DNA of 57,737 bases from Planctomycetota bacterium (GTDB taxonomy: Bacteria > Planctomycetota > GCA-002687715 > DRQF01). The notes beneath the pieces were generated by a model. That model saw nothing but the letters and a program-made list of their open reading frames with translations. It made no database searches and had not been told where the DNA came from. Of this stretch, positions 11,792 through 48,595 are shown in pieces; within the stretch, counting starts at the first letter, position 1, and every line of letters begins with the position of its first letter. The position numbers and the translations under genes were made by a program. Location of the stretch: positions 1 to 57,737 of the forward strand of contig JALTLO010000068.1 in NCBI GenBank assembly GCA_027001995.1. Direction: 5' to 3'.

Positions 11792-12190
11792 CCGGCGCAA
11801 GGGCCAACGAATTGCCTTAATCATTTTTTTCCTTCCTATTTACGCAATAAGTCCCCGCAGAATAGTCTTTTCAAGAACGATGTCAACCTAGATTTTTATG
11901 CAGGTAGCTGCAATCCCTGACCCTCTGCCACGGGGATGGGATGTCTATGATTCATGTCATATCGGGTACCCGGTCAACTTCAGCGGCATGGATATCACCA
12001 TGGAGCCTTGTGTTGGGGAAACGAGCCAGAGAATCTTGCCCTTTTCGAGCACCACCTCAAGCAAACGAAAACGGTCCCTGACATCGACTTGGGGGTTCCG
12101 CTGCTGCGGAATCGCACCATTTGGTATAAGGTGACAGGCTCGCTTTATTGCAACATCGCAGCGCGGGTTTTGTTTCTTGAGGAGTCCTTC

Positions 12191-19349
<7,159 letters not shown>

Positions 19350-22725: not shown

Positions 22726-24135
22726 CTAGAATTGGTAGTACAAGAAGGGAACGTGTTGCGCCGCCAAGAGCATCAACACTGCGAGAACAAAGCATGGCAA
22801 GACCCACACGAGATCGACCAAACGAGAATCCCTATGATGCGTCAATTGCCAGCTATTCTTGGCGAAGAACGCCAACACTATTGCACTCCCAAATTGCCAC
22901 AAACAGAGATTTTGAGTCGTCCAAAACCCATCAGAGAAACTCCCCCAACCGTTGAAGCCGAACATACCCTTGTACATTAGGATAGCACCGTCCATGTCCT
23001 TCGCACGGAAGGCAACCCAACCACAAACCACAAGGAAGAAAGTCCACAGGATACGAAGAAAGTTTGGCAGCCCTCCAAGCAGACGCCCTTGAATAATGCG
23101 CTCGATGGCCAACAATAGCCCATGAAAGGTGCCCCAGATAATAAAAGTCCATTGGGCACCATGCCAAAGTCCACCAAGCACCATGGTAATCATTAAGTTG
23201 ACGTAGGTTCGAATCGACCCTCTCTTGCTGCCTCCAAGAGGGATATATAGGTAATCTCTAAGCCAACTTGAGAGGCTTATGTGCCACCGTCTCCAAAAGT
23301 CTGTAATTGATGTGGCTTTGTAAGGAGAATTGAAGTTGCAAGGAAATGAGAATCCAAACATGAGCCCGAGACCAATGGCCATGTCAGAGTACGCACTGAA
23401 GTCATAGTAGAGTTGAAAGGCATACGCAATCGCCCCGGACCATGCTTGGCAGAATCCCGGATCTGATCTTCCGAAAACTTCGTCGGCAATGATACCGACG
23501 CCGTCCGCCAAGATCATTTTCTTGGCAAACCCCATCATGAAGAGGCGGCTACCCGTACCTAACTTCTCCAACGTGTGGCTGCGCTTCTTGATCTGCTCAT
23601 GGACAGTGCCATAGCGTACAATCGGACCGGCTACGAGTTGAGGAAACAGAGACACATAAGCAGCTAACTCCAGAATATTCCCGACTGGTTTGGCCTGTTT
23701 GCGATAAATGTCAATGGTATAGCTCATCGACTGAAACGTGTAGAACGAGATGCCAACCGGCAGCACGACTCTTTGCCAGTCCGAAATGGCGTCCGCCGAA
23801 ACCAACGGTGCAATCACACTGTTATAGTTCTCAACAAAGAAATTAGCGTATTTGAAATAGGCCAAGAGTCCTAAGTTCGAGACCATCGAAGCCAGAACCC
23901 AGATTTTTGGCCGCTTGGTAGCGGGGTTGCCAACTTTCTTGCCGCAACAGTAGTCGATCACAGTCGAAATCAGCATAAGAAGAGTAAAATCAATACGCCA
24001 CCACCCGTAGAAAGTGTAACTCATGAGGGTGAGCCACGACATACGCACGGTATTTGAGGCTCTGATGAGCAAGTAGTAGACGCCGAGCACAAGCGGTAAG
24101 AAATAGAAGAGAAAAATCTCAGAAGAGAAAACCAT
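22726..24135 (-). CDS. algI: MBOAT family O-acyltransferase (AlgI/DltB-like)
   Basis: MVFSSEIFLFYFLP start, LPVGISFYTFQSMSY, YDFSAYSDMAIG, FWRRWHISLSSWLRDYLYIPLGG, GLWHGA and a FLYYQF end. Confidence 0.93.
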   Translation of the reverse strand: MVFSSEIFLFYFLPLVLGVYYLLIRASNTVRMSWLTLMSYTFYGWWRIDFTLLMLISTVIDYCCGKKVGNPATKRPKIWVLASMVSNLGLLAYFKYANFFVENYNSVIAPLVSADAISDWQRVVLPVGISFYTFQSMSYTIDIYRKQAKPVGNILELAAYVSLFPQLVAGPIVRYGTVHEQIKKRSHTLEKLGTGSRLFMMGFAKKMILADGVGIIADEVFGRSDPGFCQAWSGAIAYAFQLYYDFSAYSDMAIGLGLMFGFSFPCNFNSPYKATSITDFWRRWHISLSSWLRDYLYIPLGGSKRGSIRTYVNLMITMVLGGLWHGAQWTFIIWGTFHGLLLAIERIIQGRLLGGLPNFLRILWTFFLVVCGWVAFRAKDMDGAILMYKGMFGFNGWGSFSDGFWTTQNLCLWQFGSAIVLAFFAKNSWQLTHHRDSRLVDLVWVLPCFVLAVLMLLAAQHVPFLYYQF

Positions 24136-24198
24136 ACCTTGCGTCCTTTGATGAAGAATTTTCCCTACCCAAGGGGAGTAGCGAACCGAAACCGATGC

Positions 24199-25479
24199 TC
24201 ATTTCCTTGGAACGAACGAAGCAAACCGTTTGGCCTGGCCGGGATTCAACTTGAGATAGTTCCGAATCGCATCCCTGCACCAAGGAATCGTCACAAGTGT
24301 TCTCCCCAACTTCTGCCATTGACCTGAGAAGCAATGGCGAAAAGGGAATTCGATCACAACAACCCGGAGTTTCGGTAAATCTGGAGCTTCTTTAATGAGC
24401 TGCAAAAGCCCCTTGATCGGCCCACCTGCGTGAATCGCATGATCTTGCACAACGGTCGACAGCTCCCATGCGAGTACGCGCGCAAGATTTGCTTTGCCGC
24501 GCATACGATCCCCGAAACGAGACCCAAAACTCGTCCCTGTGAGAGCAACTTCAGATTCGGCAGGAACATTGATCTTCGCATTCGGGAAATTTCTATATTC
24601 TAGGGCGAACTTAAAGTCACTCGCGAAATTTAGAGAATCACGAAATCCCATGTTGTATGTCGCATCCGTGGTGTGCTTTCTGGTCTTCATCACTGTCATT
24701 GCTAGATCGCCGTGACGCTGAGACAACGAAGGGACTAATTCCCTAATCCGCTCAGCCGCCATCTTTCCAGACTCAAGAACTCCAAGCGGAGACATGTGCG
24801 TCCCTAATTTAAAGAAAGGAAATTCTCCATCACGAATCATGAGGCGCAGCCTTGGCCGTAAGTTAACGACCTCGACATCGTGTTCCGCGAATTTCTTCAA
24901 GATAGAGTTCCAAACCGGATCCTCAAAACTCCGCGAGGCTCTCTGGGCCCTGCCTCTTGGCAAGAATTCTGAGCAGACGCTAGCCTTTTTCGGGATGGGG
25001 AGAACGACGCACTCGACCTCCCGAGATGCAAAACAAATGGCGACAAGCTCCTGAATTGTCGCCAGCCGCTCCAAGCGCGCTTCAGCAAAACCTCTGTCGT
25101 AATCATCAACCACATAATTGAGAGAAGCATTCCAAAAGACCCAACCGTCAGAGCCACGGACCCATGGTTTTCGGAATGTCCGAAATCCGGCATAAAGAAC
25201 CTCATTTCCGATTGCTGTGAGATATCGACTGAAAACCGTTTCCTTCATGTAGTCATCCAAGGAACGAGCGAATTTCCCATCAAGGAGTGACGCCTTGTCC
25301 GGCAGGGCTGGAAATTCTTCCAGAGGCTTGCGCGCCCAATTTCGGGTCGGTCTACTGGAATAATCATCAAACAATTCGCGCAAACGACTGCGGAATAGGT
25401 GGGGCGCAGTAATTGTTGCTGCGAAGAAGACAACAAAGGCAAAATTGCTGCCCTTGCTTAGAAACGATGTTCTTTTCAC
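24199..25479 (-). CDS. AlgJ/AlgX-like SGNH O-acetyltransferase
   Basis: N-terminal TM anchor, GSDGWVF, IPKK, GTHMSPLG (DTHW-like) and GTSFG. Lies directly upstream of the AlgI-like gene. Confidence 0.75.
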   Translation of the reverse strand: MKRTSFLSKGSNFAFVVFFAATITAPHLFRSRLRELFDDYSSRPTRNWARKPLEEFPALPDKASLLDGKFARSLDDYMKETVFSRYLTAIGNEVLYAGFRTFRKPWVRGSDGWVFWNASLNYVVDDYDRGFAEARLERLATIQELVAICFASREVECVVLPIPKKASVCSEFLPRGRAQRASRSFEDPVWNSILKKFAEHDVEVVNLRPRLRLMIRDGEFPFFKLGTHMSPLGVLESGKMAAERIRELVPSLSQRHGDLAMTVMKTRKHTTDATYNMGFRDSLNFASDFKFALEYRNFPNAKINVPAESEVALTGTSFGSRFGDRMRGKANLARVLAWELSTVVQDHAIHAGGPIKGLLQLIKEAPDLPKLRVVVIEFPFRHCFSGQWQKLGRTLVTIPWCRDAIRNYLKLNPGQAKRFASFVPRK

Positions 25480-25847: not shown

Positions 25848-26552
25848 CTATCGCGGCCCTTGAGGAGGCTTCCTCCGGCCCTTCTTGACCGGATCGTCAC
25901 TCTTGATGAGTTCTGGAAGCCCTGTGCTCAGTTCAAAGGCAAAGTGACCTTTGGTGCTGCGAACTTCTAGTGTGTAAGTGCCCGGCTTGGATCCTTTGTA
26001 CTCGAAGAACCACTTGCCCGGTGTTCCCGCCACGCGAGGGATCTTCTTGAGAGCAACCATCTTGCCATCCGGGTCTTTGAGAGTGAATTCTGCAAGACTT
26101 GAAAACCCTTGGATCAGGCGATGAGGTGATCTGGACTCCTCGATGCGATAAGTCATCACCGCATCTTGTGCCAGGTGTCCACGAGTGACTTGCCCCACTC
26201 GCAGAATCGTAGGCTTACTCGGCACTTTCCATTTCTGATCGTGCTTCTTCATTTTCAAAGTAAACTTCGCCACTTGACCAGCCTGCAAGACTAGGTCTTG
26301 AATGAAGTCCAAATGCCCAGACTCCGTCGCCCGAAGTTGTACCCGAGCCCGATTGAGGATGATCCGCAAAGGCCCTCTTGATGACGTCTGTCCCTTGAAT
26401 TTGCCATCGATGTAGATCAAGGCTTGGGTTGAATCAGCGCTCAGTTCAAGACCATAGAGAGTCTCTGTTTTGCTCACGTCGGCGAAACTGACCTCCGATG
26501 GTAAAGAAGCACAAGTGATGATCAACAAGATCAAACCAATGAGATACTTCAT
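25848..26552 (-). CDS. Exported PEGA-like domain protein
   Basis: Signal peptide and ALIYIDGKFKGQT PEGA-like motif. ATGA overlap with the upstream gene. Confidence 0.65.
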   Translation of the reverse strand: MKYLIGLILLIITCASLPSEVSFADVSKTETLYGLELSADSTQALIYIDGKFKGQTSSRGPLRIILNRARVQLRATESGHLDFIQDLVLQAGQVAKFTLKMKKHDQKWKVPSKPTILRVGQVTRGHLAQDAVMTYRIEESRSPHRLIQGFSSLAEFTLKDPDGKMVALKKIPRVAGTPGKWFFEYKGSKPGTYTLEVRSTKGHFAFELSTGLPELIKSDDPVKKGRRKPPQGPR

Positions 26553-29500
26553 TTCTCTGCTCTCCAGAGCATCGTGTTGACATGGTCACCATGATCACCG
26601 GGGTTCGTCAGCAAATAGAGGCGATTTCTCCCTCCATCCAATTGGTAGGTGATCGAATAGCCATTGGCGCTTCTTTTGACCTCATTCCACTTGATGTGAC
26701 CGGCGGCATTATTCGTTGCTACGACTTTGGTGGCTACATTGGTGGTCATGCGATAGGCACCCTCCGCCACCAAGAGTTCAATCATCTCGGCAAAGATGGC
26801 AGGATCAAAAGAAGATTCGTTCTGAACACCCAGATGAATGTAGTTCTCGGGGCGTGTGCTGGTGGGCATCAAGAAATTGATGTTCCGTCCAGTTTGGTGG
26901 GTCTTATGATCGGCTGCGCCATCATGGTCGTAGTCCATGAATCCTCCGTAGCGCGCAGAAATTTCATCAATCCCCAAGCGAGGACCTTTTGGATAACGCT
27001 CACCCCACCGTTGGACGATGCGATCAGCGAAACACAAGGTCTCTGCATCACCCCAATTGTTGGTGTGGAGAATTCCCATTTTCTTGGTCCAGGCGGCACG
27101 TTCTTGAACGAGTGCACCGTAGTAGAATCCTCGGCCACCGTCAGCCAACTGCAAGTAACCCGCCTCACTGACGACGGGCTCACCATTTTCTTCGACCACG
27201 AAGATGGGCGGCGCCGGGTGGGTGACACCAACCTTGGCATCACGGGGGAGGTCTTCAAACAAGACTCCTGGCACCGGGCTAACCTTACCTGTATCCTTCT
27301 TGCTGGACTTGTTTGGTTTCTTGGGCTTGGGATAGCCTTTAGTCGTTGTCTCCACTGTAGATTCGTAGCGGTGAATGATGACGCCGTTTCGATTGCCTTT
27401 GAGGACCAAAGAACCTTGAGGGCGGAACCAAGGTTGTTCAAAAACGACAATCGGTCGAGCGGCAAACGGCCGTTTGTGGCTAGCTGGATAGCCAACAATG
27501 GACAACTTCAAACTCTCCCCCGGAAGTATGCCGCCGTCGGGAATGTAGTTATCTTGAACCAAGCGTTGAGGTAGAACTTTGCCATCTTCGTCTTCCCACA
27601 TGATCATGAAGTCAGAAGCGTGCTTCCAATAGCCTCCTTGGATGGCCGTTGTCCCAGTGTTCTTGACTTCTATATCGATCATAAACGGCCTGTTGGGCCA
27701 CACCTTCTTTGGCATGGTCATCGACGTCACTTCCAAACCGAATTTGCCGTGATCTTCGATCCGAGCGGACCAAGGCAGAAACTCAAGACGACGTTTGGCG
27801 AGCCTCTTATCCTTAGGCAGAGGTGCTTTCTCAGCGATCTCATTGAGGAGTGCTTTCGCCTCATCGCGACGATCAAGTAGGTGAAGATAGCGAGCTTTCC
27901 GAAGACGTAGAGCCGCATTATATCTGGAGTTGGCCGCCAGGGCCTTGTCTATGGTGATCATCGCTGGAGCAAATGCGCGATTGGTAATCTCAAGCGTAGC
28001 CTCCCACTCGAGCCGTACAGCCTCCCGGGCAGCGTCAAGTTGCTCTTTGCTGACACCAGCTTTCTTCAGGGAGATTTGAGCGTGGTCCCGAACAGTGGGG
28101 TCGCCGCAGGCAGCCAAGAGATACATGATCCATTCCGCGTTTGCATCTCCTTTCATGTCACCCACAACTTCCGCCAGTGCATATTGAATAGGTTTCGGAC
28201 GCCAGCGCCCTTCCATCAAAAGGTCCCGAAAGAAATGGCCCAAGTGAGGTGACTTAAATCCGGGGAGAGCCTGAATCATCTGGCCCACAATCTTCCAACT
28301 GGGTGATGTCAATGATGACGCCAACCAAGGAAGAGCTGCTGGGTCACCGATGTGAGCCAATGCAACAGCCGTCGCTGGTGCGTCGGTGCCGGGGGTCTTA
28401 AGTCCCATTCGCAGGATTTCTGGGCGATAAGAAATGCCTTGGTGGGCCAAGCCGGCAATAGCAAGGCTTCCTTCACGCCCGCCCTTCTTGGCGATTTCCC
28501 GCAAGAACGACTGAGAGCCGGGATGCCTAATCCTGGCAACAAAATCGAGGCACTGAGTTCTTCCTCTGGAAATGGACGCTTTGTAATAAGCAGCAATCAT
28601 GTCTTCGGATATGGACTGTGCTCCACCATCTCCCAGACATAGCAGAACATCAGAGGTCAAGTTCCCGACGTAGTCAAACAAGAGGGAATTTACTATTTTG
28701 CCACCCTTGGTGACCTCCCTCACATCCTTGCTGCCGAGTAGGCGAATGCCTTCAGCAAGAGCATTCTTGAAAACGGTAACTGGGTCTTCTTTCTTCTCGC
28801 CCGCTTTCAAATGGTAGGAGTCTATCTTGTCGTTCATGGCAGCCATGAGTCCGCCAAGCTTTTCGAACAAGCTACGGTTCTTGGCCACCAAGTTTCGTTT
28901 CTCGCCAGGATCTGCCTTGAGATCAAAGACCTCGTAGCTACGTTTTTGAACCGCGTGAATGAGCTTCTCGCGTCCGCGAATCAACATACGCTTGGTATTG
29001 GTATCTTTACCGCCTACAGCGACGAAGTGATCGGCGTAGGCCAATCCGAGATCGCCCTTACCACCGGAGAACATGACAGGAAGTAAGTTTCTTCCATGGC
29101 GAGGCTCAGGATCTTTGACATTGAGAAGGGCCGTCAGAGTAGGCACGACATCGACCAAACTCACAGTCGTGTCAATGTGTTTTCCTTTCACTCCTGGAAC
29201 ACGAATGAACAAGGGAACTCGGATTTGTTCTTCATAGAGGGAGGTGTTGTGGTCCCAACCGGCGTGCTCGCCAAATTCTTCACCATGATCAGCGAACATG
29301 ACAACAATTGTGTGATCGAGGTCGCCGCGCTTTTCGAGATGATCAAGAAGTTCCCCAGCCTGGCTGTCCGTCCAAGCGATCTCGGAGTCATAGCGGTCAA
29401 TAGCATCATCGCCGAAATCGAATCCGTCCCACTTCTCGTAGTTTCCGTGAGGGTCCAGGTAGTGGGCCCACAAGACAAAAGGTTTGCCATTGTTTTTGTC

Positions 29501-30853
29501 AACCTGACTCTTAGCGGAGGCAGTGATCTGATTGGCTTTGGCGGCATCTGCCCGTTGATCCGGGTTGTATATGTCGAATCCCCGACTCAAGAGGCCAAAC
29601 CAATTGTCGTCCTTGGCGTTGCTAGCATTGAAAGCGTTGACAGCGATAGTATTCCAGCCTCGCTTCCCCAGAAGACCAGCGAATGGGATGTCGTCGCTAA
29701 AAGACCAGCCTTTCTTCTTGATACGACTATAGACCGGATTGGCCCGGGCATAGAGCCCGGTAAACAAACTCGAATAAGAAAAACTACTGGTTGGATAAGC
29801 TGAGTAGGCATAGTCAAAGACAAAAGCATCTGCGGCCAATTTGTCGATATTGGGCGTGGTGTTCCTGTCGTATCCGGTGAATCCACAATGGTCAAAACGC
29901 AAGGTATCAATGGCTAAGAACAGAACATTGTATTTCTTCTTAGGGTCAAGTTGATCCTGAAACCATGCGTTCGCTATCCGCTCAGCCTCGACCTCATTGC
30001 CCGGCAATTCCCCAGCCGGTGGCTCACTCAAAGTCAAGGTTGCCGCCTTCTTCCAACAATCAAAAACCTGGCTACTGATGCCGAAGAATTCTTGGACCCC
30101 CTGGCCCCGGGACGCCACGGCGCTTCCCACAGAAATATTCAAATCAGTGGTGCGCAAATGAGCTGCCCCTAAACAGGAGCCCAAGGCGACAACCAAGAAG
30201 ATCTTGGACAAACCCGACCGGCGGGCCAAGTAGAGAGCTGGCCCCACCACCATGACGATAGCACCCAAAGCCACCATCTGGGTGTGAAGCATCGGATAAA
30301 GCCCAGGGAAACGGACCACGTTCTGCCACAAAGCAAGAACGGAGACGAATCCCAAGAAAAGAGCGAAGGCCAAGGACTTTGGCCCAGAGCATTCAGTCTT
30401 GCGAATGAGTATCAAAAGCACTTTGATGCCAATACCAATTGCCAAGATACCGACGATCCGAAATCCAGCGATGATCATGGTGATCTGAGCGTGTTTCGAG
30501 ATACGACCACCGTCAAAAGTGTGAAGATTAACGTAGACGAAACCGGCGGAAGCTATGAGGAAAAGTATGAAGGCTGCTTGGTTCCTTCTCTTCAACGCCT
30601 TCCCAACGACCATGCCAAGAAGCCCAATGATAGCCATGGCCAAGCCCGCGAGAATTCCGAACATGACAGAGGAGCCAACGATCAAGACGCCGAGGCCGAG
30701 AGTCTCTGTGGCATCAGCAAGTTCAGGCCCTGGAATCGTGTATCCAATGGCAAAGTCGATAAGCCCAAAGAGAAAACTTCCGATGACGGTGGCCGCGACA
30801 TAGAGACCAATTGCCCCACAGCAGGGCCCGGCTTGTTCAGATTTCGACAGCAT
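26549..30853 (-). CDS. Multidomain membrane protein: TM region, alkaline-phosphatase-superfamily (sulfatase/LtaS-like) domain, HEAT/TPR repeats, Ig-like domain and degenerate MepA-like C-terminal domain
   Basis: About 7 TM helices. NVLFLAIDTLRFDH, AYPTSSFSYSSLFTG, HYLDPH and FADHGEEFGEH. Helical repeats follow. C-terminal WGDAET...IDEISARYGG...HKTHQTGRNINF...HGDHVN. Confidence 0.8.
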   Translation of the reverse strand: MLSKSEQAGPCCGAIGLYVAATVIGSFLFGLIDFAIGYTIPGPELADATETLGLGVLIVGSSVMFGILAGLAMAIIGLLGMVVGKALKRRNQAAFILFLIASAGFVYVNLHTFDGGRISKHAQITMIIAGFRIVGILAIGIGIKVLLILIRKTECSGPKSLAFALFLGFVSVLALWQNVVRFPGLYPMLHTQMVALGAIVMVVGPALYLARRSGLSKIFLVVALGSCLGAAHLRTTDLNISVGSAVASRGQGVQEFFGISSQVFDCWKKAATLTLSEPPAGELPGNEVEAERIANAWFQDQLDPKKKYNVLFLAIDTLRFDHCGFTGYDRNTTPNIDKLAADAFVFDYAYSAYPTSSFSYSSLFTGLYARANPVYSRIKKKGWSFSDDIPFAGLLGKRGWNTIAVNAFNASNAKDDNWFGLLSRGFDIYNPDQRADAAKANQITASAKSQVDKNNGKPFVLWAHYLDPHGNYEKWDGFDFGDDAIDRYDSEIAWTDSQAGELLDHLEKRGDLDHTIVVMFADHGEEFGEHAGWDHNTSLYEEQIRVPLFIRVPGVKGKHIDTTVSLVDVVPTLTALLNVKDPEPRHGRNLLPVMFSGGKGDLGLAYADHFVAVGGKDTNTKRMLIRGREKLIHAVQKRSYEVFDLKADPGEKRNLVAKNRSLFEKLGGLMAAMNDKIDSYHLKAGEKKEDPVTVFKNALAEGIRLLGSKDVREVTKGGKIVNSLLFDYVGNLTSDVLLCLGDGGAQSISEDMIAAYYKASISRGRTQCLDFVARIRHPGSQSFLREIAKKGGREGSLAIAGLAHQGISYRPEILRMGLKTPGTDAPATAVALAHIGDPAALPWLASSLTSPSWKIVGQMIQALPGFKSPHLGHFFRDLLMEGRWRPKPIQYALAEVVGDMKGDANAEWIMYLLAACGDPTVRDHAQISLKKAGVSKEQLDAAREAVRLEWEATLEITNRAFAPAMITIDKALAANSRYNAALRLRKARYLHLLDRRDEAKALLNEIAEKAPLPKDKRLAKRRLEFLPWSARIEDHGKFGLEVTSMTMPKKVWPNRPFMIDIEVKNTGTTAIQGGYWKHASDFMIMWEDEDGKVLPQRLVQDNYIPDGGILPGESLKLSIVGYPASHKRPFAARPIVVFEQPWFRPQGSLVLKGNRNGVIIHRYESTVETTTKGYPKPKKPNKSSKKDTGKVSPVPGVLFEDLPRDAKVGVTHPAPPIFVVEENGEPVVSEAGYLQLADGGRGFYYGALVQERAAWTKKMGILHTNNWGDAETLCFADRIVQRWGERYPKGPRLGIDEISARYGGFMDYDHDGAADHKTHQTGRNINFLMPTSTRPENYIHLGVQNESSFDPAIFAEMIELLVAEGAYRMTTNVATKVVATNNAAGHIKWNEVKRSANGYSITYQLDGGRNRLYLLTNPGDHGDHVNTMLWRAEK

Positions 30854-33193: not shown

Positions 33194-33466
33194 ATTGATG
33201 AAATCGTGGCCCAGATAAACGGCTCAGGCAGCATTCGGGTGCTACGCTGCCCACGGCGGTGGCGAATTCGCGATCTTTGGGGTTCGGTTCAGACACCTCC
33301 CTCTCTTGAGGATTCGACTCAAGAATTCATTCACTTCTTGTTGACTGATTTGGTTAATTCAGCAACAATGGTCTCTTCACCGCGCCGCAACTCAAGAATT
33401 CGAGACCCATGTTGCGGTCGAACGTTTGGCAATGATGCCAAGTCGTTTTGCCTTGGTTATTTATCT

Positions 33467-34555
33467 ATGACGACAACAAACCGTATTCGCCGCCACCTTC
33501 GTCTCTCCCGACGAGCACTTGCGAAGCGAAATGTGGGAACACCCCCATTCCTCATCCTGTTCATCAACTCCATCTGCAACCAGGCCTGCGATCATTGCTT
33601 CTACTGGCAAAACCTGAATCAACGAGATGACCTAACCAAAGATGAGTTATTTAGACTAGCAGAAAGCTTGGGCCCAATTGAAAACCTCAGCCTTTCTGGT
33701 GGCGAGCCTTTCTTGCGGCCGGAGCTGGGGGAAATTTGCCGGAAATTCGTGGACGAGACCGGTGTCAAGCGAATATACACTCCGACCAACGGCAGTTTTA
33801 CTGAGAAGACGATCACCCAGTTGCGGGAAGCATTCAAACATCCTGGACTCGAAAACTTCACCGTTGAACTCTCTCTTGATGGTCTTGAAGAAGCTCACAA
33901 TGCCATGCGCAAGGATCCTCAAGGATTCGCCAAGTCCATGCGTACATACGATGCCTTGGCGGAATATCAAAAAGAAGAACCACGCCTCGATATCCACTCC
34001 ATATCCACATGCACAGGAGAAAATGTCGATGAGATTGCTCAACTCAGTCAATTCTTAGTCGATCGATGCCCAGCCATGGCACACCACAACATTGCCATGA
34101 TTCGCGGCGAGAGAAAAAAAGCCACGCTCCAAGGGCCAAAACTCGAAGAATACCGGCGCTTAGTCCAAGAAACCAAACGCATTTGGCGCGTCCGGGGACA
34201 AGGTCGGTTCGGCGGCATAGTCGACCCGATGCTCCATTGGGGCAAAATCAGAGCTGCAGAGACCCAGACACAAGCTATCCCTTGCACCGCAGGGAAACTG
34301 ATTGGAGTCGTACACGCCAACGGAGACGTAGCCCTCTGCGAAGAGCGCGAGCCCATCGGTAATCTGCGCTCTAACACCTTCCCTGAAATCTGGAGTTCCG
34401 TCGCTGGTCAGCAACAACGATGTGCCATCAAGAACAAAGAATGCCATTGCACCAGTGAGGTCTTTATGTGGCCCAGCATTGTCTTTCAGCCAAAATCACT
34501 TGTTCGAGGCATGATTGGGGGCAAGGTTTGGAAACGCGGCGACAGTGGGTCTTGA
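33467..34555 (+). CDS. Radical SAM protein with SPASM/twitch domain
   Basis: CNQACDHC, SGGEPF and C-terminal CTAGK...GDVALCE...IGNL...CHC. Start placed at ATG 33467. Confidence 0.88.
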   Translation: MTTTNRIRRHLRLSRRALAKRNVGTPPFLILFINSICNQACDHCFYWQNLNQRDDLTKDELFRLAESLGPIENLSLSGGEPFLRPELGEICRKFVDETGVKRIYTPTNGSFTEKTITQLREAFKHPGLENFTVELSLDGLEEAHNAMRKDPQGFAKSMRTYDALAEYQKEEPRLDIHSISTCTGENVDEIAQLSQFLVDRCPAMAHHNIAMIRGERKKATLQGPKLEEYRRLVQETKRIWRVRGQGRFGGIVDPMLHWGKIRAAETQTQAIPCTAGKLIGVVHANGDVALCEEREPIGNLRSNTFPEIWSSVAGQQQRCAIKNKECHCTSEVFMWPSIVFQPKSLVRGMIGGKVWKRGDSGS

Positions 34556-41795: not shown

Positions 41796-44477
41796 ATGAC
41801 GCAGATGACAATTAACTCAATTCTATTGCTCCTGGTCACGCTGAGTTTGGTGGGCTGCGTCCACCATCCACCCCTCGTGCTGAGCCCTGAAATGCAAGCA
41901 CGCCTGAAGGCCGAGGGGATCTCGGAGGAGTTGGCCCACGACCGGGCCGGCCGAATCAGTCACTTGTCCTACAAATTAGACCTCATCATTGACCCTAAGA
42001 AAGACAAGTTTCAGGGCACCTGTGCGATGGACTTCTCCCTTCGGGAACCACATGCCCCTCTCATGATTGACTTTCGCGGGAAAACCGTCGAGCGCATCCA
42101 GGTAAACGGCGCAACCATAGCAATCAACCAAGTGGCGAATCACTTGGAGATCGATTATCTCTATCTCATCGACGGCAGAAACCGAATCGAAATTGACTAC
42201 ACGGCTGGCATCGGTGCCGCTGGCGAGGGCATCATTCGGGTGGAAGATAAGGACGATGGCAGTACCTACCTCTACACACTCAACGTGCCTGCCGATGCTC
42301 ACCGAGTCTTCCCATGTTTCGACCAACCAGACCTCAAGGCCACCTTCGAACTTCATGTTTCTTTGCCGGCAGTGCCTCGTGGCTCGACCCCTCGAACGGT
42401 CGTAAGCAACGGTGCTCGTATCTCCATCACAGCCCCCGACGACGAGAGCCCACGTACGGGAGACAAGTACAGCTTCGCCAGAACCAAGCCCATCTCAACC
42501 TACTTATTCGCATTTGCCATTGGACACTTCCACGAGATTCAATCGACCGGCAACGGACGTCCCATGTCCTTTTTCGGACGCAAGAGCCAAAAAAAACTAA
42601 TGGAGACTCATGCCTCAGATATTTTCAGACTCCACCAACAGGCTTGCGAATTCTTAGAAAACTGGTTCGGTATTGACTATCCCTTCTCAAAGTTTGAGTT
42701 TGTCTGCGTGCCTGATTTTCCCTTTTCCGGAATGGAGCATCCGGGCTGCATCTTCTATGGCGAAGACCCCATGTTGTTCCGCAGCTCCGTGTCAAAATTG
42801 AGGAAAGCGCGACGAGCTGATCTCATCGCCCACGAGACTGCCCACATGTGGTTTGGCGACTTGGTGACCATGCCTTGGTTCGATGACGTTTGGCTGAAAG
42901 AAGGTTACGCCACCTTCATGGCCCACAAGACATTGGAAACTCTCATTCAAGACGTTGACCATGAAACAGCCTTCTTCTTGAGAAACTATCCCAGCGCTTT
43001 GGAAACCGATGTGACTGAAGGCTCGGCACCCATGCGCCAACCACTCGCCAATATGGATGACGCGAAGTCCAATTATGGCCCAATCATCTATCGCAAAGGG
43101 CCAGCCGTACTGCGCGCCTTAGAATACATGATTGGTTCAGACGCCTTTCAAGAAGGCTCGAGACTCTTCTTAGACCGGCACTCTTTCACCAATGGTTCAT
43201 GGGAGGATCTTAGGGTTGCCTTAGAAGACGCATGGGGAAAGGGGCGTGGTTCCTTGAAGGCCTTTGGGAAAATCTGGATCGAACGAGGTGGGGCCCCCAC
43301 CGTTGTGAGTGCATTGATGCGGGAAAGAGATGGCAAATCGCGGCTTGTCATCAAACAGCAGGCATCATCGGGAGCTGATCGTTCTTGGCCCCTTGCCCTT
43401 GAGGCCTGCTGGTTCAATGACGAAGGAAAGATCGTCTCGCAGAAACAGAGCTTCACGGGTGATCAAGTTGTTGTCGCAGACATCGAAAGTGCAAAGAGCT
43501 TCAGCTTCGCCAACTTCAAGAACAGAGCCTACGCTCGATTCGAGCTGGACCAGAATTCCCGCCGATTCGTATTGGAAAACTTCTCTGCCTTTCAAGATCA
43601 GCTATTGCGAGCAATGCTCTGGGAAAGTCTTTGGAGTGCAGTCGAAAACAACAAACTGGATCCCGCCACCTTTGTGTCATTCGCCCATGAACATCTGTTC
43701 ACCGAAACAGACCAAAGGCTCTTGAGCTTAGTGCTAGGACGATTGCAAACCATCATCTCCCGCTATCTAAACGATGAAGAACGCCAGACCGCATCCCAGA
43801 GTATCGAAGATAGCTTGACCAATGCCGTGGAAGGCAAAATGTATCAGAAAGGAACGCGGCTCCTCCTACTCCGGCAATTCATCAGTTTCGCCAGGTCCAA
43901 GAACGGCTTGGAGAAACTTGTGAGTTTGGCAGAAGGCAGCTACGACGGCGGAGGGCTAAAAGTCTCGAGTCGTGATCGATGGAACGCCATCACACGGCTT
44001 ATGTTACTGGGGGATTCCCGGGCTGATTCCCTCTTGGACATGATGTCTGCCAACGAATCCGGCGACGAAGCAAGACGACGCATTTTCTTGGTGGAATGCG
44101 CCCGGGGCACCTCAGAGAGCAAAGCCGAAATGTATCGGAGGTTCTTTGAAGACAAAGATCTGCCTGAGCGATGGGTCCAAGACGGAGCCGCTATTTTCTT
44201 CGCATCGGAGCAGGCCTTCCTGACCAATACATTCTTGGAAGACGCTCTCGATCGCCTGGAGTGGATAAAAGCCAACCGCAAGATATTCTTCTTAGCTGCT
44301 TGGAGCAACGCGGTCATCAAGAGCCGCTTGAGTTCAGCGAGCGCCCACACCATCAAGCGTTTCTTGGGACAGAAGAGCATTCCTGCCGACATCCGTCGTA
44401 AAGTCCAAGTCCCTCTCTATCACCTCAAACGGACAATAGCAGTCAGAATAAGCACGGGAGCATCAGTGGGTGGCTGA
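41796..44477 (+). CDS. pepN: Aminopeptidase N (M1), probable lipoprotein
   Basis: Lipobox LVGC, FPCFDQPDLKA, SGMEHPG, HETAHMWFGDLVT...WLKEG, YRKG and an ERAP1-like helical C-terminus. Confidence 0.9.
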   Translation: MTQMTINSILLLLVTLSLVGCVHHPPLVLSPEMQARLKAEGISEELAHDRAGRISHLSYKLDLIIDPKKDKFQGTCAMDFSLREPHAPLMIDFRGKTVERIQVNGATIAINQVANHLEIDYLYLIDGRNRIEIDYTAGIGAAGEGIIRVEDKDDGSTYLYTLNVPADAHRVFPCFDQPDLKATFELHVSLPAVPRGSTPRTVVSNGARISITAPDDESPRTGDKYSFARTKPISTYLFAFAIGHFHEIQSTGNGRPMSFFGRKSQKKLMETHASDIFRLHQQACEFLENWFGIDYPFSKFEFVCVPDFPFSGMEHPGCIFYGEDPMLFRSSVSKLRKARRADLIAHETAHMWFGDLVTMPWFDDVWLKEGYATFMAHKTLETLIQDVDHETAFFLRNYPSALETDVTEGSAPMRQPLANMDDAKSNYGPIIYRKGPAVLRALEYMIGSDAFQEGSRLFLDRHSFTNGSWEDLRVALEDAWGKGRGSLKAFGKIWIERGGAPTVVSALMRERDGKSRLVIKQQASSGADRSWPLALEACWFNDEGKIVSQKQSFTGDQVVVADIESAKSFSFANFKNRAYARFELDQNSRRFVLENFSAFQDQLLRAMLWESLWSAVENNKLDPATFVSFAHEHLFTETDQRLLSLVLGRLQTIISRYLNDEERQTASQSIEDSLTNAVEGKMYQKGTRLLLLRQFISFARSKNGLEKLVSLAEGSYDGGGLKVSSRDRWNAITRLMLLGDSRADSLLDMMSANESGDEARRRIFLVECARGTSESKAEMYRRFFEDKDLPERWVQDGAAIFFASEQAFLTNTFLEDALDRLEWIKANRKIFFLAAWSNAVIKSRLSSASAHTIKRFLGQKSIPADIRRKVQVPLYHLKRTIAVRISTGASVGG

Positions 44478-44651
44478 CACAAGACCCAAATTCAGGGTGT
44501 CGCCCCAATAAGCTCCACTTATTGCAATCATAAAAATCAATAGGACTGACAATCTCCAAGAAAGTCGTATTCTTCTGGTAATGAAGAACAGAGCACAACA
44601 ATCTGGACAGTTCAGATCATTCCGTCGAGGGACCACAGGAGCCCGCAGCCT

Positions 44652-45401
44652 ATGAGCTTCCCAGTCGTGATCTATCTCGGCCCCCTGGCGCTCAACGCCC
44701 ATGTCGTCTTTGAGGCATTGGCCTACTTCATTGGCTTTCGCACCTACTCATGGGGAAGAAAAAACGCCGGTGACATCGTCCGGCCGTCCACACGCTGGAC
44801 GATCATTTTGTCGGCCGCCATCGGCGGTGCCATCGGCTCCAAGCTTCTCCACCACTTGTCTTCCCCTTCACGACTCGCTTCCCATTGGCACGACCCTGTG
44901 TTCATCATGGGTGGTAAGACCATTGTCGGAGGTCTCTTGGGAGGGCTCCTCTGTGTCGAAGCTGTCAAGAAGTACTACGGCATCAAACAATCCACCGGCG
45001 ATCTTTTTGCCATCCCCCTGTGTGTCGCCATTGCCATCGGCAGGATCGGTTGTTTCTTAAGTGGGGTGACGGACGACACAGTGGGTGTTCACACCCAACT
45101 TCCATGGGGTGTCGACTTCGGTGACGGCTTTCGCCACCCCACACCCCTCTATGAGATTCTGTTCTTGCTCTTCTTGGCATGGGCGATCCACAAGAGGAAG
45201 AATCACCCCTACTTTGAGGGACAGCTCTTCAGCCTCTTCATGTTTTCCTATCTGGGGTTTCGTTTTCTCTGCGACTTCCTTAAGGACTATGAGATTCTCT
45301 TTGGCCTCAGAGGAATTCAATGGGCCTGCCTTCTTGGATTGATTCACTATGGCCTTAAGCTGCGCGTAAGTGCTGCCAGATTGAATGGAGTACACCCATG
45401 A
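44652..45401 (+). CDS. Prolipoprotein diacylglyceryl transferase (Lgt)-family membrane protein, divergent
   Basis: Multi-TM protein with AIGRIGCFLSG, LPWGVDFGDG, RHPTPLYE and YLGFRFLCDFLK. These correspond to the Lgt GRxGNF, RHPSQLYE and RFxxEFxR motifs. Confidence 0.82.
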   Translation: MSFPVVIYLGPLALNAHVVFEALAYFIGFRTYSWGRKNAGDIVRPSTRWTIILSAAIGGAIGSKLLHHLSSPSRLASHWHDPVFIMGGKTIVGGLLGGLLCVEAVKKYYGIKQSTGDLFAIPLCVAIAIGRIGCFLSGVTDDTVGVHTQLPWGVDFGDGFRHPTPLYEILFLLFLAWAIHKRKNHPYFEGQLFSLFMFSYLGFRFLCDFLKDYEILFGLRGIQWACLLGLIHYGLKLRVSAARLNGVHP

Positions 45402-46822
45402 CGAACCGCCTTCGATCTTATCAATACTATGACATCGCCGTGTCGATCTGCTCCACTTGCCTCAAGCGAGTCGACGGCAAGATCTTGTTTCAAGACGCAT
45501 GGGTATTTCTCGAGAAACGCTGCCCTGAGCATGGCTTGGAGCGGATCAAGATTGCCGACGACATCGACTATTATCGGCGTTGCCGGGAAGTTTTCATCAA
45601 ACCGTCAGAGATGCCCATGCAGTTCAATACACCCATCAAACATGGTTGTCCCTACGATTGTGGGCTCTGTCCGGACCATGAGCAGCATTCTTGTTTGACA
45701 ATCATTGAACTGGGTGATTTCTGCAATTTGGAATGCCCCGTGTGCTTCGCAAGCTCTGGTCCATCGAACTTAAACTTTCACAGATTCGATCAAGTGTGCG
45801 CCATGCTGGACGCCGTGGTGGCCAATGAAGGAGAGCCAGATGTCGTCCAATTGTCCGGGGGCGAACCCACCCTCCATCCACAATTCTTCGACATCTTGGG
45901 CGAAGCCAAAAAACGACCTATCAAACATCTCATGCTCAACACCAATGGGCTCAAAATCGCTAACGAAGATGGGTTCGCCACGAAGTTGGCTCGCTACATG
46001 CCAGGCTTCGAGATTTATCTCCAGTTCGATTCATTTGAAAAAGACACTCTCATGGGTCTTCGGGGCGCCGACTTAAGATCGGTGCGCAAACGGGCCATTC
46101 AAAAACTCAACGACCTGGGCATATCAACCACCCTCGTAGTAACTCTGCGCCGGGGACAAAACGACGCTGAGATCGGCAAGATCATTGACTATGCCGCCGC
46201 TCAAAGCTGTGTCCGCGGTGTCACCTTACAGCCCATTCAAGATGCTGGTCGCAATGTCGGTTTCAATGAAGCCACAGATCGTTTGACCCTCAGCGAGGTG
46301 AGACGAAAGATCTTGGAGCAAACTTCCTTATTCGCTCCGGAAGACATTATCCCGGTGCCCTGTCACCCGGACGCCTTGGCCATGGCTTACGCCATCAAAA
46401 AAGAAGAGAAACTGATTCCTCTCACCGGGATGATCGACCCGAAGGTCCTCATAGAAGGGGGCCGAAACACCATTTCATTCGAGAAGGATGAAGACCTCAA
46501 AGAGAAGATCTTCGACACTTTCTCAACTGCCCATTCTCCCAAATCTAGCATGGCGAGTTTGAAGAGTCTTCTTTGTTGCCTTCCGAAAATGGACCTGCCT
46601 TCGTCACTGGGTTATGACAACTTGTTCCGCGTCATCATCATGCAGTTCATGGACGCCCATGATTTTGATGTTCGCAGCGTCAAGAAAAGTTGTGTTCACA
46701 TAGTACACCCCAAAGACTTTAGGCTTATTCCATTCGAGACTTACAACCTCTTCTATCGGGGGTCATTGGAAAAAGAAGTCCTCGAACCCCTCAGGCGAAA
46801 GTCGAAGTTGGCTGGCAAATGA
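45398..46822 (+). CDS. Radical SAM enzyme homologous to archaeal tetraether synthase (Tes/GDGT-MAS, MJ0619 family)
   Basis: N-terminal CSTC...CPEHG (rubredoxin-like site), GCPYDCGLCPDH (auxiliary cluster), CNLECPVC (radical SAM motif), SGGEPT, IYLQFD and C-terminal QFMDAHDFDV...SCVH...IPF. Confidence 0.85.
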   Translation: MTNRLRSYQYYDIAVSICSTCLKRVDGKILFQDAWVFLEKRCPEHGLERIKIADDIDYYRRCREVFIKPSEMPMQFNTPIKHGCPYDCGLCPDHEQHSCLTIIELGDFCNLECPVCFASSGPSNLNFHRFDQVCAMLDAVVANEGEPDVVQLSGGEPTLHPQFFDILGEAKKRPIKHLMLNTNGLKIANEDGFATKLARYMPGFEIYLQFDSFEKDTLMGLRGADLRSVRKRAIQKLNDLGISTTLVVTLRRGQNDAEIGKIIDYAAAQSCVRGVTLQPIQDAGRNVGFNEATDRLTLSEVRRKILEQTSLFAPEDIIPVPCHPDALAMAYAIKKEEKLIPLTGMIDPKVLIEGGRNTISFEKDEDLKEKIFDTFSTAHSPKSSMASLKSLLCCLPKMDLPSSLGYDNLFRVIIMQFMDAHDFDVRSVKKSCVHIVHPKDFRLIPFETYNLFYRGSLEKEVLEPLRRKSKLAGK

Positions 46823-47130
46823 AGCAAGCACCAGAACACAAATTTGAAAGGCAGTTCAGAAAAGGCGTGTTAGCTGGCCTCTGCGCTCATTTGGCTGGTG
46901 TCTTGTTCTTGCTTCTCTTGGCCTTTCTCATTGGGGAGCTTGCCCTCGCTTTCGTCCTGTTGTTTTTTGGTGTAGCTCAATTCTTCTACTTCATTCCGGC
47001 CCTGATCGTCGCGAAGAGAAAACAAGCAACAAACGATTTTATCAAAGGCATGGCCCTTACCTGCGCCATCCCTTTCATCATGAATGCTGGTTGCTTCGGA
47101 ATATGGGGACTTGGATCGATGGGCAGATGA
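46819..47130 (+). CDS. Small 3-TM membrane protein with a C-terminal NAGCFG motif
   Basis: ATGA-coupled to the radical SAM gene and paralogous to 47176..47502. Confidence 0.8.
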   Translation: MKQAPEHKFERQFRKGVLAGLCAHLAGVLFLLLLAFLIGELALAFVLLFFGVAQFFYFIPALIVAKRKQATNDFIKGMALTCAIPFIMNAGCFGIWGLGSMGR

Positions 47131-47175
47131 TTCACCTCTCGCACAAAGAACACAAAAAGTAAGGGAAGAAGAATC

Positions 47176-47502
47176 ATGGAAGATTCGAAAGACAAGAAAG
47201 TCAATGTGGACGTCAGAAGAGGTATCTTCGTCGGCACGCTCATTCACCTGGTGGGTATTCCAACGGTCATTGGAGTCATAGGCGTGATTGCCCACGAAGG
47301 AGCCGTGGCCATTCTTTTCATCGGCCTACTCCAGGCATTCTACTTGATTCCGGCCATGGGCATCGCTCGTCACCGAGGAGCGTCCAGAGACTTCATGAAG
47401 GGGATGGCACTCACAGCACTCATCATTTTTCTGTTGAATGCCACGTGTTTCGGCCTCTTTGCCGCCTCCTTGGCGTTCAGCGGTCCTTGGTATGGTGGTT
47501 AA
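47176..47502 (+). CDS. Small 3-TM membrane protein with a C-terminal NATCFG motif
   Basis: Shares HLxG, GxxQxFYxIPA, DFxKGMALT and NAxCFG with the preceding ORF. Confidence 0.8.
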   Translation: MEDSKDKKVNVDVRRGIFVGTLIHLVGIPTVIGVIGVIAHEGAVAILFIGLLQAFYLIPAMGIARHRGASRDFMKGMALTALIIFLLNATCFGLFAASLAFSGPWYGG

Positions 47503-47554: not shown

Positions 47555-48595
47555 TTATGGATGAGGCTGAGGGGAAGTCTGAATCATATAGGCGATCAAC
47601 TTATAGAGCAGCCGGGCTCCGACATTGGCATCCCATTCGTCTCGGCCTGGCGCAACCTCGCAAAGATCAAAACCGATAATTCTGCGACCGCTTTCTTGCA
47701 CCAAGGATAGAAGGAAAATCGCCTCGTTGAAATCCAGCCCACCTGGCACAGGGGTTCCTGTATTGGGGCAGAGTTTCGGGTCGAGGCCATCGACATCGAA
47801 TGAGATGTAGACTTCTTGGGGTAGCTCATCCACGATACTCTGAGCCAATTGTCCCCAGGGCTCTCCCCTGAATCTAGATCGAGCGATGTCTTGATCGTAG
47901 AAAGCCACAATGACACCATCCGATTCATCGGCCATGGCTTTTTCTTCTTCGCAGAAATCACGGATGCCCACTTGCACTAACTTCTGGACACCATCGAGTT
48001 GAGTCATAACATTGAACATGATGGAAGCGTGGGACCAAGTGAAGCCATCGTATGACTCTCGCAAGTCATGGTGAGCATCTAAATGCAAGATCCCCATACC
48101 TGGATGGCGCAAAGAAAGCTCTTCAATCAAACCAAAAGGTGAGGCGTGATCACCACCAATGAGACCAACCAGCTTGCCATCATCCAGAGTTTGTTTGGCC
48201 AAAGACCGGACGTATTTGTTTACTTTTTCCCCAGCCAGATTCACTTCTGTAAGAGCCGAATCCGCATTGACACCTTTGCCCTGAGCGACCTCCACAGCCT
48301 TGAGTGCTTCCTTGTTGAGGGCCCGAATCTCACTCGATTCCGTCAACAAATGAATGCCGACTTCATAGGGCCTGCCACATTCTAAGTCGAAGAGGTCCGG
48401 TTGATGGCTTGCCCTCAGAATCGCTTGGGGCCCAAGGCTAGTCCCCCGCCCATAGGAGGTCGTAGCTTCAAAAGGAACAGGAATCAAATGGACAAGACTC
48501 TCTGAAGCCGATGTTGACGTACCGAAAATTCCAGCGTCTGGATCTGCCGGTGCAGAGGGATCAAAGCTCCGCGACCCAATATGGGGTTCTTTCAT
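47555..48595 (-). CDS. speB: Agmatinase-like ureohydrolase (arginase family)
   Basis: PFEATTSYG, GGDH, DAHHD, SFDVDGLDP, TGTPVPGGL and FDLCEV. Confidence 0.88.
   Translation of the reverse strand: MKEPHIGSRSFDPSAPADPDAGIFGTSTSASESLVHLIPVPFEATTSYGRGTSLGPQAILRASHQPDLFDLECGRPYEVGIHLLTESSEIRALNKEALKAVEVAQGKGVNADSALTEVNLAGEKVNKYVRSLAKQTLDDGKLVGLIGGDHASPFGLIEELSLRHPGMGILHLDAHHDLRESYDGFTWSHASIMFNVMTQLDGVQKLVQVGIRDFCEEEKAMADESDGVIVAFYDQDIARSRFRGEPWGQLAQSIVDELPQEVYISFDVDGLDPKLCPNTGTPVPGGLDFNEAIFLLSLVQESGRRIIGFDLCEVAPGRDEWDANVGARLLYKLIAYMIQTSPQPHP

Follow-up and report, generated by a model that had tools for sequence, protein, structure and literature searches.

What might four neighbouring genes make together when two of them encode relatives of lipid-handling enzymes and the other two encode small membrane proteins with a cysteine in a lipoprotein-like position? 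The question is raised by positions 44652-47502 of a 57,737-nt stretch of DNA (hereafter the window, meaning the whole of contig JALTLO010000068.1, positions 1 to 57,737, from the Planctomycetota bacterium assembly GCA_027001995.1). The list of open reading frames (ORFs) and translations of the window gave four co-oriented ORFs on the + strand: a paralog of the Lgt family (44652..45401, 249 residues, seven predicted transmembrane helices), an enzyme of the radical S-adenosylmethionine (SAM) type resembling GDGT-MAS/Tes, the archaeal tetraether synthase (45398..46822, 474 residues), small membrane protein 1 (46819..47130, 103 residues, three hydrophobic helices), and its paralog, small membrane protein 2 (47176..47502, 108 residues). 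A first-pass annotation of this DNA had described four co-oriented genes with two ATGA overlaps, set off by a gap of 174 bp to their left and by a convergent gene to their right, and the sequence confirmed each of these points; the stop and start codons of the Lgt paralog and the radical SAM gene overlap at 45398-45401, and those of the radical SAM gene and small protein 1 at 46819-46822. We infer the chemistry of this cassette from its gene linkage, folds, conserved residues and membrane topology, and on these grounds consider it evenly balanced whether the genes encode a self-contained three-part membrane module that lipid-modifies its own small proteins.

Linkage of the genes across genomes

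Conservation was followed first of all in 41 genomes from this phylum, the source genome among them. A radical SAM ortholog was present in 14 of these (thirteen matches were 57-100% identical, one of them, at 85%, being partial, and one was 40% identical), and two further genomes, G034 and G040, held only relatives at 27-31% identity. An Lgt-like gene, scored at an expectation value (E) <= 1e-15, was present in 12 of the 14 genomes with a radical SAM ortholog and in 0 of the 27 others; in the two exceptions, G001 and G021, the radical SAM gene lies at a contig end. The Lgt-like gene was adjacent in all 11 testable loci of the related genomes.

On a wider scale, with one genome taken per species, at least 563 relatives of the radical SAM enzyme were confirmed, and linkage was scored in the best 80 of these, which are 53-67% identical to the window protein. 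They span Planctomycetota, Acidobacteriota, Eisenbacteria, Myxococcota, Gemmatimonadota, Burkholderiales, Xanthomonadales, Paenibacillaceae, Bacteroidota and Cyanobacteria, among others, as well as one metagenome-assembled genome (MAG) labelled Methanobacteriota; carriers of the cassette include Flavobacterium, Pedobacter, Mucilaginibacter, Paenibacillus, Massilia and Fischerella, and many of the loci are acidobacterial. Searches with tblastn placed an Lgt-like gene 5' of the radical SAM gene and on the same strand in 67 of the 80 loci, and seven of the 13 misses have less than 700 nt of upstream DNA. Where both genes were found (75 loci), the stop of the Lgt-like gene overlaps the start of the radical SAM gene in 47, lies 0-60 nt from it in 9, 61-400 nt in 6 and more than 400 nt in 11, and the gene order is reversed in 2. 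Loci L013 and L017 have the radical SAM gene followed by an Lgt-family gene of GCC type (GRMGCAAAGCCAG, GRLSCFAAGCCFG).

The two enzymes also occur as a single polypeptide. Fused Lgt-like::Zn-ribbon::radical SAM proteins of 714, 725 and 734 residues were found, in which the first ~240 residues correspond to the Lgt paralog and the rest to the radical SAM enzyme, along with shorter or more distant examples. Long ORFs within the radical SAM cluster were left uncounted as fusions, as they look like upstream over-extensions in GC-rich DNA. The linker of the fusions P0006, P0007 and P0008, at residues ~240-250, carries a conserved pair of cysteines (NDTCCG / EDCCAG) that the unfused window proteins do not have. 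When 1,021 crude ORFs from 93 loci were clustered, no other gene family was found in more than 12 loci; apart from both enzymes, the clusters that recurred were those of small membrane proteins and a single shadow ORF, which runs antisense to the Lgt-like gene. Because the same gene set recurs in other genomes, the arrangement in the window is far beyond chance. The gene association on which the first-pass annotation had built its proposal is upheld by adjacency in distant phyla, by co-occurrence in related genomes and by natural fusions, and the four genes are a conserved, widespread module.

The Lgt paralog and the radical SAM enzyme

The first gene of the cassette matches the Pfam family LGT (PF01790) at 89.9 bits against a cut-off of 24.9, yet it falls below every NCBIfam cut-off for Lgt equivalogs (TIGR00544, 31.9 vs 118.9; best Lgt model, 49.5 vs 334). 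Its Pfam placement is what speaks for a reading from ordinary biology, under which the gene would be the housekeeping lipoprotein transferase and its neighbours unrelated. We regard that reading as extremely improbable; it is already contradicted by the equivalog scores, by a second lgt, by the conserved linkage and by the fusions. As the first-pass annotation had implied in calling the gene a paralog, a separate housekeeping lgt is present: an LGT Pfam search of the source genome (an assembly of 204 contigs, 92% complete) returned three family members at 242.1, 137.7 and 89.5 bits, the last being the window gene, and the 242.1-bit gene, located elsewhere, carries the canonical SFHGGL, RIANFINGELYG and RHPSQIYE. 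The third LGT-family gene (L002:1474-2271, - strand, contig C174; 137.7 bits) encodes 266 residues, carries GRLGCFLAGCCYG, and adjoins a gene for a 509-residue protein with a polytopic C-terminal half.

A phmmer search of the Protein Data Bank with the single paralog sequence returned nothing at E <= 0.01, whereas profile and fold searches did match: a profile of 65 orthologs matched E. coli Lgt (5AZB) at E 1.4e-14, and the AlphaFold2 (AF2) model, with a predicted local distance difference test (pLDDT) score of 95.4, had 5AZB as its sole Foldseek hit at E <= 0.001 (E 9.5e-9, TM-score 0.64). The paralog thus has the seven-helix Lgt fold by model and fold search. In the ESM Atlas, the nearest clusters were unnamed hypothetical proteins.

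The residues that are kept and those that are changed fall on different parts of this fold. R131, Y200 and R204 are invariant in 65/65 orthologs and align with Arg143, Tyr235 and Arg239 of Lgt, to which essential roles are assigned (Mao 2016). Compared with both the genome's own Lgt and 5AZB, the paralogs retain G130-R131, G133, G145, R161-H162-P163, Y167-E168, Y200, R204, D/E208 and K211, the counterparts of which in Lgt are G142-R143, G145, G154, the RHP before Pro197, Glu202, Tyr235, Arg239, Glu243 and Arg246; at most of these positions mutation is not tolerated in E. coli (Mao 2016). The histidine of HGGL (His103), described there as essential in E. coli and proposed as a lipobox-binding or peptide site, is replaced in every paralog (by Val in 50, Met in 7, Ile in 4, Leu in 2 and Ala in 2; His 0/65), the window protein having Val92. 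The canonical Lgt signature GRLGNFINGELWG, with its Asn146 and Glu151, is absent as well. The paralogs read GRIGCFLxGLx[DE]xTxG, with Cys at the Asn146 position in 65/65 (Cys134, within GRIGCF, in the window) and with the Glu151 region rebuilt by a two-residue insertion that sets the acidic residue two positions on. A short periplasmic head was dropped as a mark of the paralog, as that of the genome's housekeeping Lgt is equally short (19 vs 17 residues). This pattern suggests a protein that has retained the lipid-donor and transfer core of Lgt and has a changed acceptor site, and such a change would match the non-canonical acceptor motif of the adjoining small proteins. The N-terminus of Lgt forms part of the periplasmic head, and as the protein has seven helices, its C-terminus is expected to be cytoplasmic, which would fit a fusion to a cytoplasmic iron-sulfur enzyme.

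For the second gene, Pfam gave Radical_SAM (PF04055) with 75 bits and Zn_ribbon_HMPTM (PF23545) with 49.5 bits. Among NCBIfam models it scores 290.9 on TrsS, which has a cut-off of 490, and 252 on Tes, which has one of 450; three orthologs score 308-337 bits on TrsS, and orthologs score 260-303 on Tes. GDGT-MAS (7TOL) was aligned by phmmer over residues 14-467 (E 4e-63; 27-28% identity), and Foldseek of the AF2 model (pLDDT 87.9, weak at 353-400) matched 7TOM at E 4.3e-37 with a TM-score of 0.78 over 518 columns, which is the whole four-domain fold. The next match was SkfB (TM-score 0.38), and all others, including RiPP maturases (ribosomally synthesized and post-translationally modified peptides; TM-score <= 0.38), cover the radical SAM core only.

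The first-pass annotation had assigned to this enzyme the same cysteine architecture as Tes. The metal sites of GDGT-MAS are four, namely a rubredoxin-like iron, the radical SAM cluster and two [4Fe-4S] clusters, one N-terminal and the other C-terminal, and bacterial phosphatidic acid was found in its crystals (Lloyd 2022); the C-terminal cluster is described as having a labile Met439 and forming a sulfur-carbon intermediate, and Met439 and Tyr459 as being conserved across 1000 archaeal homologs. The motifs CxxC...CxxH, CPYDCGLCPDH and CNLECPVC are all present in the translation and, with the ligand identities taken from Lloyd 2022, the claim was borne out for three sites, each marked by conservation among 91 orthologs and lying on the + strand: the rubredoxin-like site (C18, C21, C42, H45; nt 45449-45532), the N-terminal cluster (C84, C88, C91, H94; nt 45647-45679), and the radical SAM CX3CX2C motif (C109, C113, C116; nt 45722-45745). 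The ligands of these sites are kept in 91/91 orthologs, with the exception of H45 (90/91).

At the C-terminal cluster the claim did not hold. The four C-terminal cysteines of 7TOL, which we presume to be the cluster ligands, align by our reading with I414, S/T431, C432 and D/E447, and Cys occurs at the I414, S/T431 and D/E447 positions in only 0-1 of the 91 orthologs. A single sequence has Cys at each of 431 and 447, which align with two of the archaeal positions, and is tentatively L017, the most divergent ortholog. The Met439 position holds Met in 58/91 and Val in 31/91, and the Tyr459 position holds Ile in 81/91. Other residues have become conserved instead, namely C99, C322, C432 and H434 (91/91) and C393 and C394 (88/91), and of these C322, C393, C394 and C432 make a relocated C-terminal cluster plausible. 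Since the residues of the C-terminal cluster differ, the enzyme is best described as a structural relative of Tes and a non-equivalog, whose bond-forming step may differ.

The idea that the orthologs include selenoproteins was rejected. In the acidobacterial ortholog L040 (6001-7434) the in-frame stop, a TAG, falls at codon 44 within the metal motif CPEH and reflects either a nonsense change, making a pseudogene, or an error of MAG assembly; the stop in L072 is the end of its own gene.

Small membrane proteins and their cysteine

Neither small protein matched a Pfam or NCBIfam family. The two are paralogous (36/96 residues identical, 38%; E 2e-22), and each has a cysteine at the same distance from a lysine: Cys92 of small protein 1 (nt 47092-47094, + strand) lies in MNAGCFG, 16 residues after Lys76, and Cys91 of small protein 2 (nt 47446-47448, + strand) in LNATCFG, 16 residues after Lys75. 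A word-based homolog search with small protein 1 returned its own cluster and one relative at 85% only, and the family became visible solely through gene neighbourhoods and a profile. The profile, iterated from the window's two proteins, gathered 35 relatives in 24 loci, and in the resulting 31-row alignment only the Cys, three Gly and the Met of the start codon stand in columns conserved at >= 90%. Run against 1.84 billion representatives clustered at 50% identity, the same profile gave 2157 proteins at E <= 0.001, of which 790 reach E <= 1e-10. Residues were counted in the best 149 representatives, the window's own protein excluded, and the Cys is present in 146, as the first-pass annotation had supposed in calling it conserved; the counts for Gln, Pro and Tyr are 149, 148 and 139, and these three residues form the motif QxxYxxP in helix 2, which small protein 1 carries. 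Conservation of QxxYxxP means that the Cys is not the sole constrained residue of the family.

The position of the Cys in the membrane can be read from its flanks. Among the 147 representatives with a late Cys, the mean number of Lys and Arg residues is 3.8 at positions -30 to -13 (18 residues) vs 0.56 in the tail, the upstream count exceeds the tail count in 146/147, and the Cys lies exactly 16 residues past the last Lys or Arg in 103/147. The positive-inside rule therefore places it at the outer face, at the outer end of an inside-to-outside helix, and it is on the outer side that the active site of Lgt opens (Mao 2016). A canonical lipobox, [LVI][ASTVI][GAS]C, fits only 6 of 102 Cys motifs in neighbouring small proteins, with G at -1 outnumbered by L, A, I, S or T; the window's proteins do not fit it either, having NAGC and NATC in their third helix.

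The name NAxCFG, which the first-pass annotation had used, suits the window's pair and covers only one of several small-protein classes. Bacteroidota loci have one to five tandem genes for proteins of 57-118 residues that end in GLGICG, GFSTC or GFGTC. In Acidobacteriaceae, one to three genes stand between both enzymes and encode SLGLCG where the first helix ends, and in Betaproteobacteria the genes lie 5' of the Lgt-like gene and encode GGLCA or LMTLCSG. The Cys helix of the acidobacterial and betaproteobacterial classes comes first, ahead of more membrane protein. Common to all classes is a Cys after small residues near the end of a helix that stands behind a positively charged flank. By a strict rule, an adjacent small membrane ORF on the same strand with such a Cys helix was present in 63 of 94 loci, and a looser scan of the reading frames added 16; the Cys motif occurred in 102 of 180 adjacent small membrane ORFs vs 45 of 437 other ones in the same loci (odds ratio 11). 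One locus without an Lgt-like neighbour has in place of the mini-protein a frame of ~300 residues after the radical SAM gene (L089:7422-8351) with the lipoprotein signal LLGLSACGS. When the Lgt paralog was co-folded with small protein 2 (alignments of 65 and 31 rows, respectively), the score was 0.01 vs a mark of 0.32, which bears on binding in neither direction.

Recurrent C-termini are a further feature of the small proteins. SGPWYG(G) is found in the window's clade (47482-47499), small protein 2 itself ending in SGPWYGG, and many other small proteins (L005, L006, L052, L054 and L059, among others) end in an aromatic residue or Met followed by a terminal His. The C-terminal residue is His in 28 and Gly in 32 of the 149 representatives. 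In the 148 of 149 representatives with a Cys, the tail after the last Cys is mostly 7-18 residues long, three being longer (26-190).

Such tails invite comparison with RiPP-like lipopeptides. The lipidated Cys would in that case be freed by a cut just before it, by signal peptidase II or another protease, to yield a diacylglyceryl peptide of ~7-18 residues that the radical SAM enzyme would tailor, the two upstream helices serving as leader. The tandem arrays of one to five copies, the short tails, the recurrent C-termini (His, Gly and, in several, SGPWYG) and the presence of lspA elsewhere in the genome are consistent with this. Against it, L, I or T often precedes the Cys in place of G, A or S, which disfavours signal peptidase II; the Cys helix comes first in the acidobacterial and betaproteobacterial classes, with more membrane protein behind it; no SPASM, twitch or peptide-recognition domain was matched in Pfam on the radical SAM enzyme; and no protease or exporter is conserved among the 93 clustered loci. 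A lipopeptide of this kind we hold to be quite unlikely.

The product of the cassette and its known relatives

Lipidation of private Cys mini-proteins by the Lgt paralog is the best-supported reading, and the case for it stands at about the midpoint between doubt and acceptance. Under this reading the Lgt paralog would, judging from its family and motif, bind a diacylglycerol phospholipid and pass the diacylglyceryl group to the thiol of the conserved Cys at the outer end of the helix, the surroundings of the Cys serving as a private, non-canonical 'lipobox'. The Tes-like radical SAM enzyme, in the cytoplasm, would dock on the cytoplasmic C-terminus of the Lgt paralog, as the fusions and the fold suggest, and activate an unactivated C-H of an acyl chain, either on the donor or on the protein-bound lipid; the new bond could be tail-to-tail C-C as in Tes, or another link made through the altered C-terminal cluster. 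What results would be a small integral membrane protein with a covalent remodelled lipid, possibly macrocyclic or membrane-spanning, and is probably a new kind of lipid-modified membrane protein. The claim that the small proteins are dedicated Cys-bearing substrates of the Lgt paralog is, as an inference, well supported because the linkage, the separate lgt and the Cys conservation hold. Tes-type welding of tails on the attached lipid is possible and less secure. In its fullest form, with diacylglycerol placed on the mini-protein Cys and Tes-derived welding of the acyl chains among themselves or onto an opposite-leaflet lipid, so that the protein would be riveted to a macrocyclic or membrane-spanning lipid, the proposal is tentative and somewhat unlikely.

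Several observations weigh against lipidation of dedicated substrates followed by radical chemistry. Six of the 13 loci in which an Lgt-like gene was missed have full flanks. Five of these six genomes were searched whole: the gene lies elsewhere on the same contig in Fischerella (E 2e-61), ~7 kb upstream in one acidobacterial MAG, and on another contig as a 38% match in one genome, and with this query Shewanella canadensis gave only a weak Lgt-like hit (9e-7) and a 2.4-Mb MAG gave none. No small protein with a Cys helix was seen in 13 of the 94 loci, several of which are cut, and two more loci are ambiguous; Cys-less members of the family exist, namely L012 and one L007 paralog. The nominal P of 2e-32 for the enrichment of the Cys motif overstates its significance, the loci being related and the ORF calling crude and uncurated. 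QxxYxxP would suit a subunit that has a function of its own no less than a substrate. The active site of Lgt faces outward and the radical SAM enzyme is cytoplasmic, and the sharing of one lipid between the two would call for an explanation. Finally, neither the cysteines of the archaeal C-terminal cluster nor Tyr459 are conserved, so that C-C coupling of the Tes type is not assured.

A serious rival, though in our judgement a fairly unlikely one, is a pathway that concerns lipids only. The Lgt-like/radical SAM pair would then remodel a free glycerolipid, giving, for example, macrocyclic or membrane-spanning diacid lipids or precursors of brGDGTs, the branched tetraethers of the glycerol dialkyl glycerol type; the Lgt-like protein would hold or transfer the lipid, and the small proteins would be subunits acting as scaffold, anchor or regulator, with a structural or redox Cys. 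Bacterial Tes homologs have been proposed as brGDGT synthases (Zeng 2022; Solibacter preprint), and the fold and three metal sites of the enzyme are those of a lipid tail-coupling enzyme. Many of the loci are, moreover, acidobacterial, the invariant QxxYxxP would suit a subunit, and the fusions mark the enzyme pair as the core. The lipid-only pathway sits less well with the frequency of the cassette in Flavobacterium, Pedobacter, Mucilaginibacter, Paenibacillus, Massilia and Fischerella, six genera from which we know of no reports of membrane-spanning lipids. It must also accommodate C-terminal cluster ligands that differ from those of Tes, and the fact that the one feature common to otherwise unrelated classes of small proteins is a Cys in a lipoprotein-like position. 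Among acidobacteria that produce iso-diabolic acid, Tes homologs were reported in only 3/14 (Sahonero-Canavesi 2022).

The intergenic region 5' of the Lgt paralog (44478..44651, + strand, 174 bp) has AGGAG 10 nt before the ATG and a single sigma-70-like match at 44546-44573; a simple promoter scan found 4 promoter-like matches, not above the 2.3 +/- 1.5 of shuffled sequences, and a simple terminator scan found no terminator-like site after 47502. The M1 aminopeptidase ORF that ends at the far side of this region (41796-44477, +) starts with a textbook lipoprotein signal ending in LSLVGC, a canonical lipobox, in contrast with the NAGC and NATC of the small proteins downstream. An agmatinase-like gene (47555-48595, - strand) converges on the cassette 52 bp past small protein 2. 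Elsewhere in the window, a radical SAM/SPASM gene (33206-34552, +) stands among large sulfatase genes (11954-15403, 26552-30853) in an arrangement that resembles an anaerobic sulfatase-maturase and is unrelated to the cassette, and at 22729-25479 (-) a gene for an MBOAT acyltransferase adjoins one for an SGNH protein that resembles AlgX, a pairing characteristic of polysaccharide O-acetylation.

As far as the literature was searched, subscription journals and supplements aside, neither a function of the module nor an account of the cassette was found in print. Bacterial Tes homologs have been known from sequence searches alone since 2022, when 456 of them were reported and a role in brGDGT synthesis was proposed (Zeng 2022) and Solibacter usitatus was picked by way of its bacterial Tes homolog (2022 preprint); a 2026 review still treats them as bioinformatic only, and the words 'Lgt' and 'lipoprotein' are absent from its text. 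The homologs are used as markers of organisms that make brGDGTs, the lipids that underlie paleoclimate proxies. The clade described here is hard-wired to an Lgt paralog and Cys mini-proteins and has a rebuilt C-terminal cluster, and counting such genes as tetraether synthases may for these reasons mislead. Were the reading of a module that lipid-modifies its own mini-proteins to prove right, it would bring to light both a protein-lipid modification of a new sort and a further use of radical chemistry on lipids that is likewise new, and would give a function to a small membrane protein family of 2157 representatives at 50% identity; were the welding of tails right as well, it would be the first assigned function for many bacterial 'Tes homologs'. 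The module is compact, with three to four genes that are sometimes fused, and its presence in cultivable Flavobacterium, Pedobacter and Paenibacillus makes it directly testable.

Set beside known systems, the Lgt paralog shares with Lgt (E. coli; 5AZB/5AZC; PF01790; TIGR00544) the seven-helix fold, the G-R-x-G start of the signature, the RHPxQLYE motif and the Tyr...Arg...Asp/Glu...Lys/Arg row of helix 6. It departs from Lgt in its 16% identity and sub-equivalog scores, in the exchange of the HGGL His for V/M/I/L/A and of Asn146 for Cys, in the rebuilt Glu151 region, and in being a second or third genome copy with a radical SAM partner and a non-canonical acceptor motif next door. The radical SAM enzyme resembles GDGT-MAS/Tes (M. 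jannaschii MJ0619; 7TOL/7TOM; NF045702) in its four-domain fold and three kept metal sites, and differs in its 27-28% identity, in its score (252 vs 450 bits), in the changed C-terminal Cys positions and Tyr459 (Ile in 81/91), and in being bacterial and linked or fused to an Lgt paralog.

Its best-scoring NCBIfam model is TrsS (NF045646), matched over the full length at 290.9 bits; unlike TrsS, it stays below the 490-bit cut-off and has no in-frame TGA in the window's ORF. In the one paper found, TrsS figures only as a row of a selenoprotein table. The TrsS-like genes of G034 and G040 are 27-31% identical to the window's gene and have no Lgt-like neighbour, and no Lgt-like gene was found in either genome with this query. 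These distant TrsS/Tes-like genes (L019, L020, L021) include two in tandem and two with one in-frame TGA, and are probably selenoproteins. Mss (Thermotoga, Thermoanaerobacter) is likewise a radical SAM enzyme proposed to couple acyl tails; it was identified in a study that describes it as only remotely related to Tes (Sahonero-Canavesi 2022), and the text consulted mentions no Lgt partner. The small proteins, for their part, share with bacterial prolipoproteins a positive flank, a hydrophobic helix of ~16 residues and a Cys at the outer face, and differ from them in that the lipobox fits only 6/102, in that the Cys helix of the window's proteins is the third and last and not an N-terminal signal peptide, and in that 7-18 residues follow the Cys.

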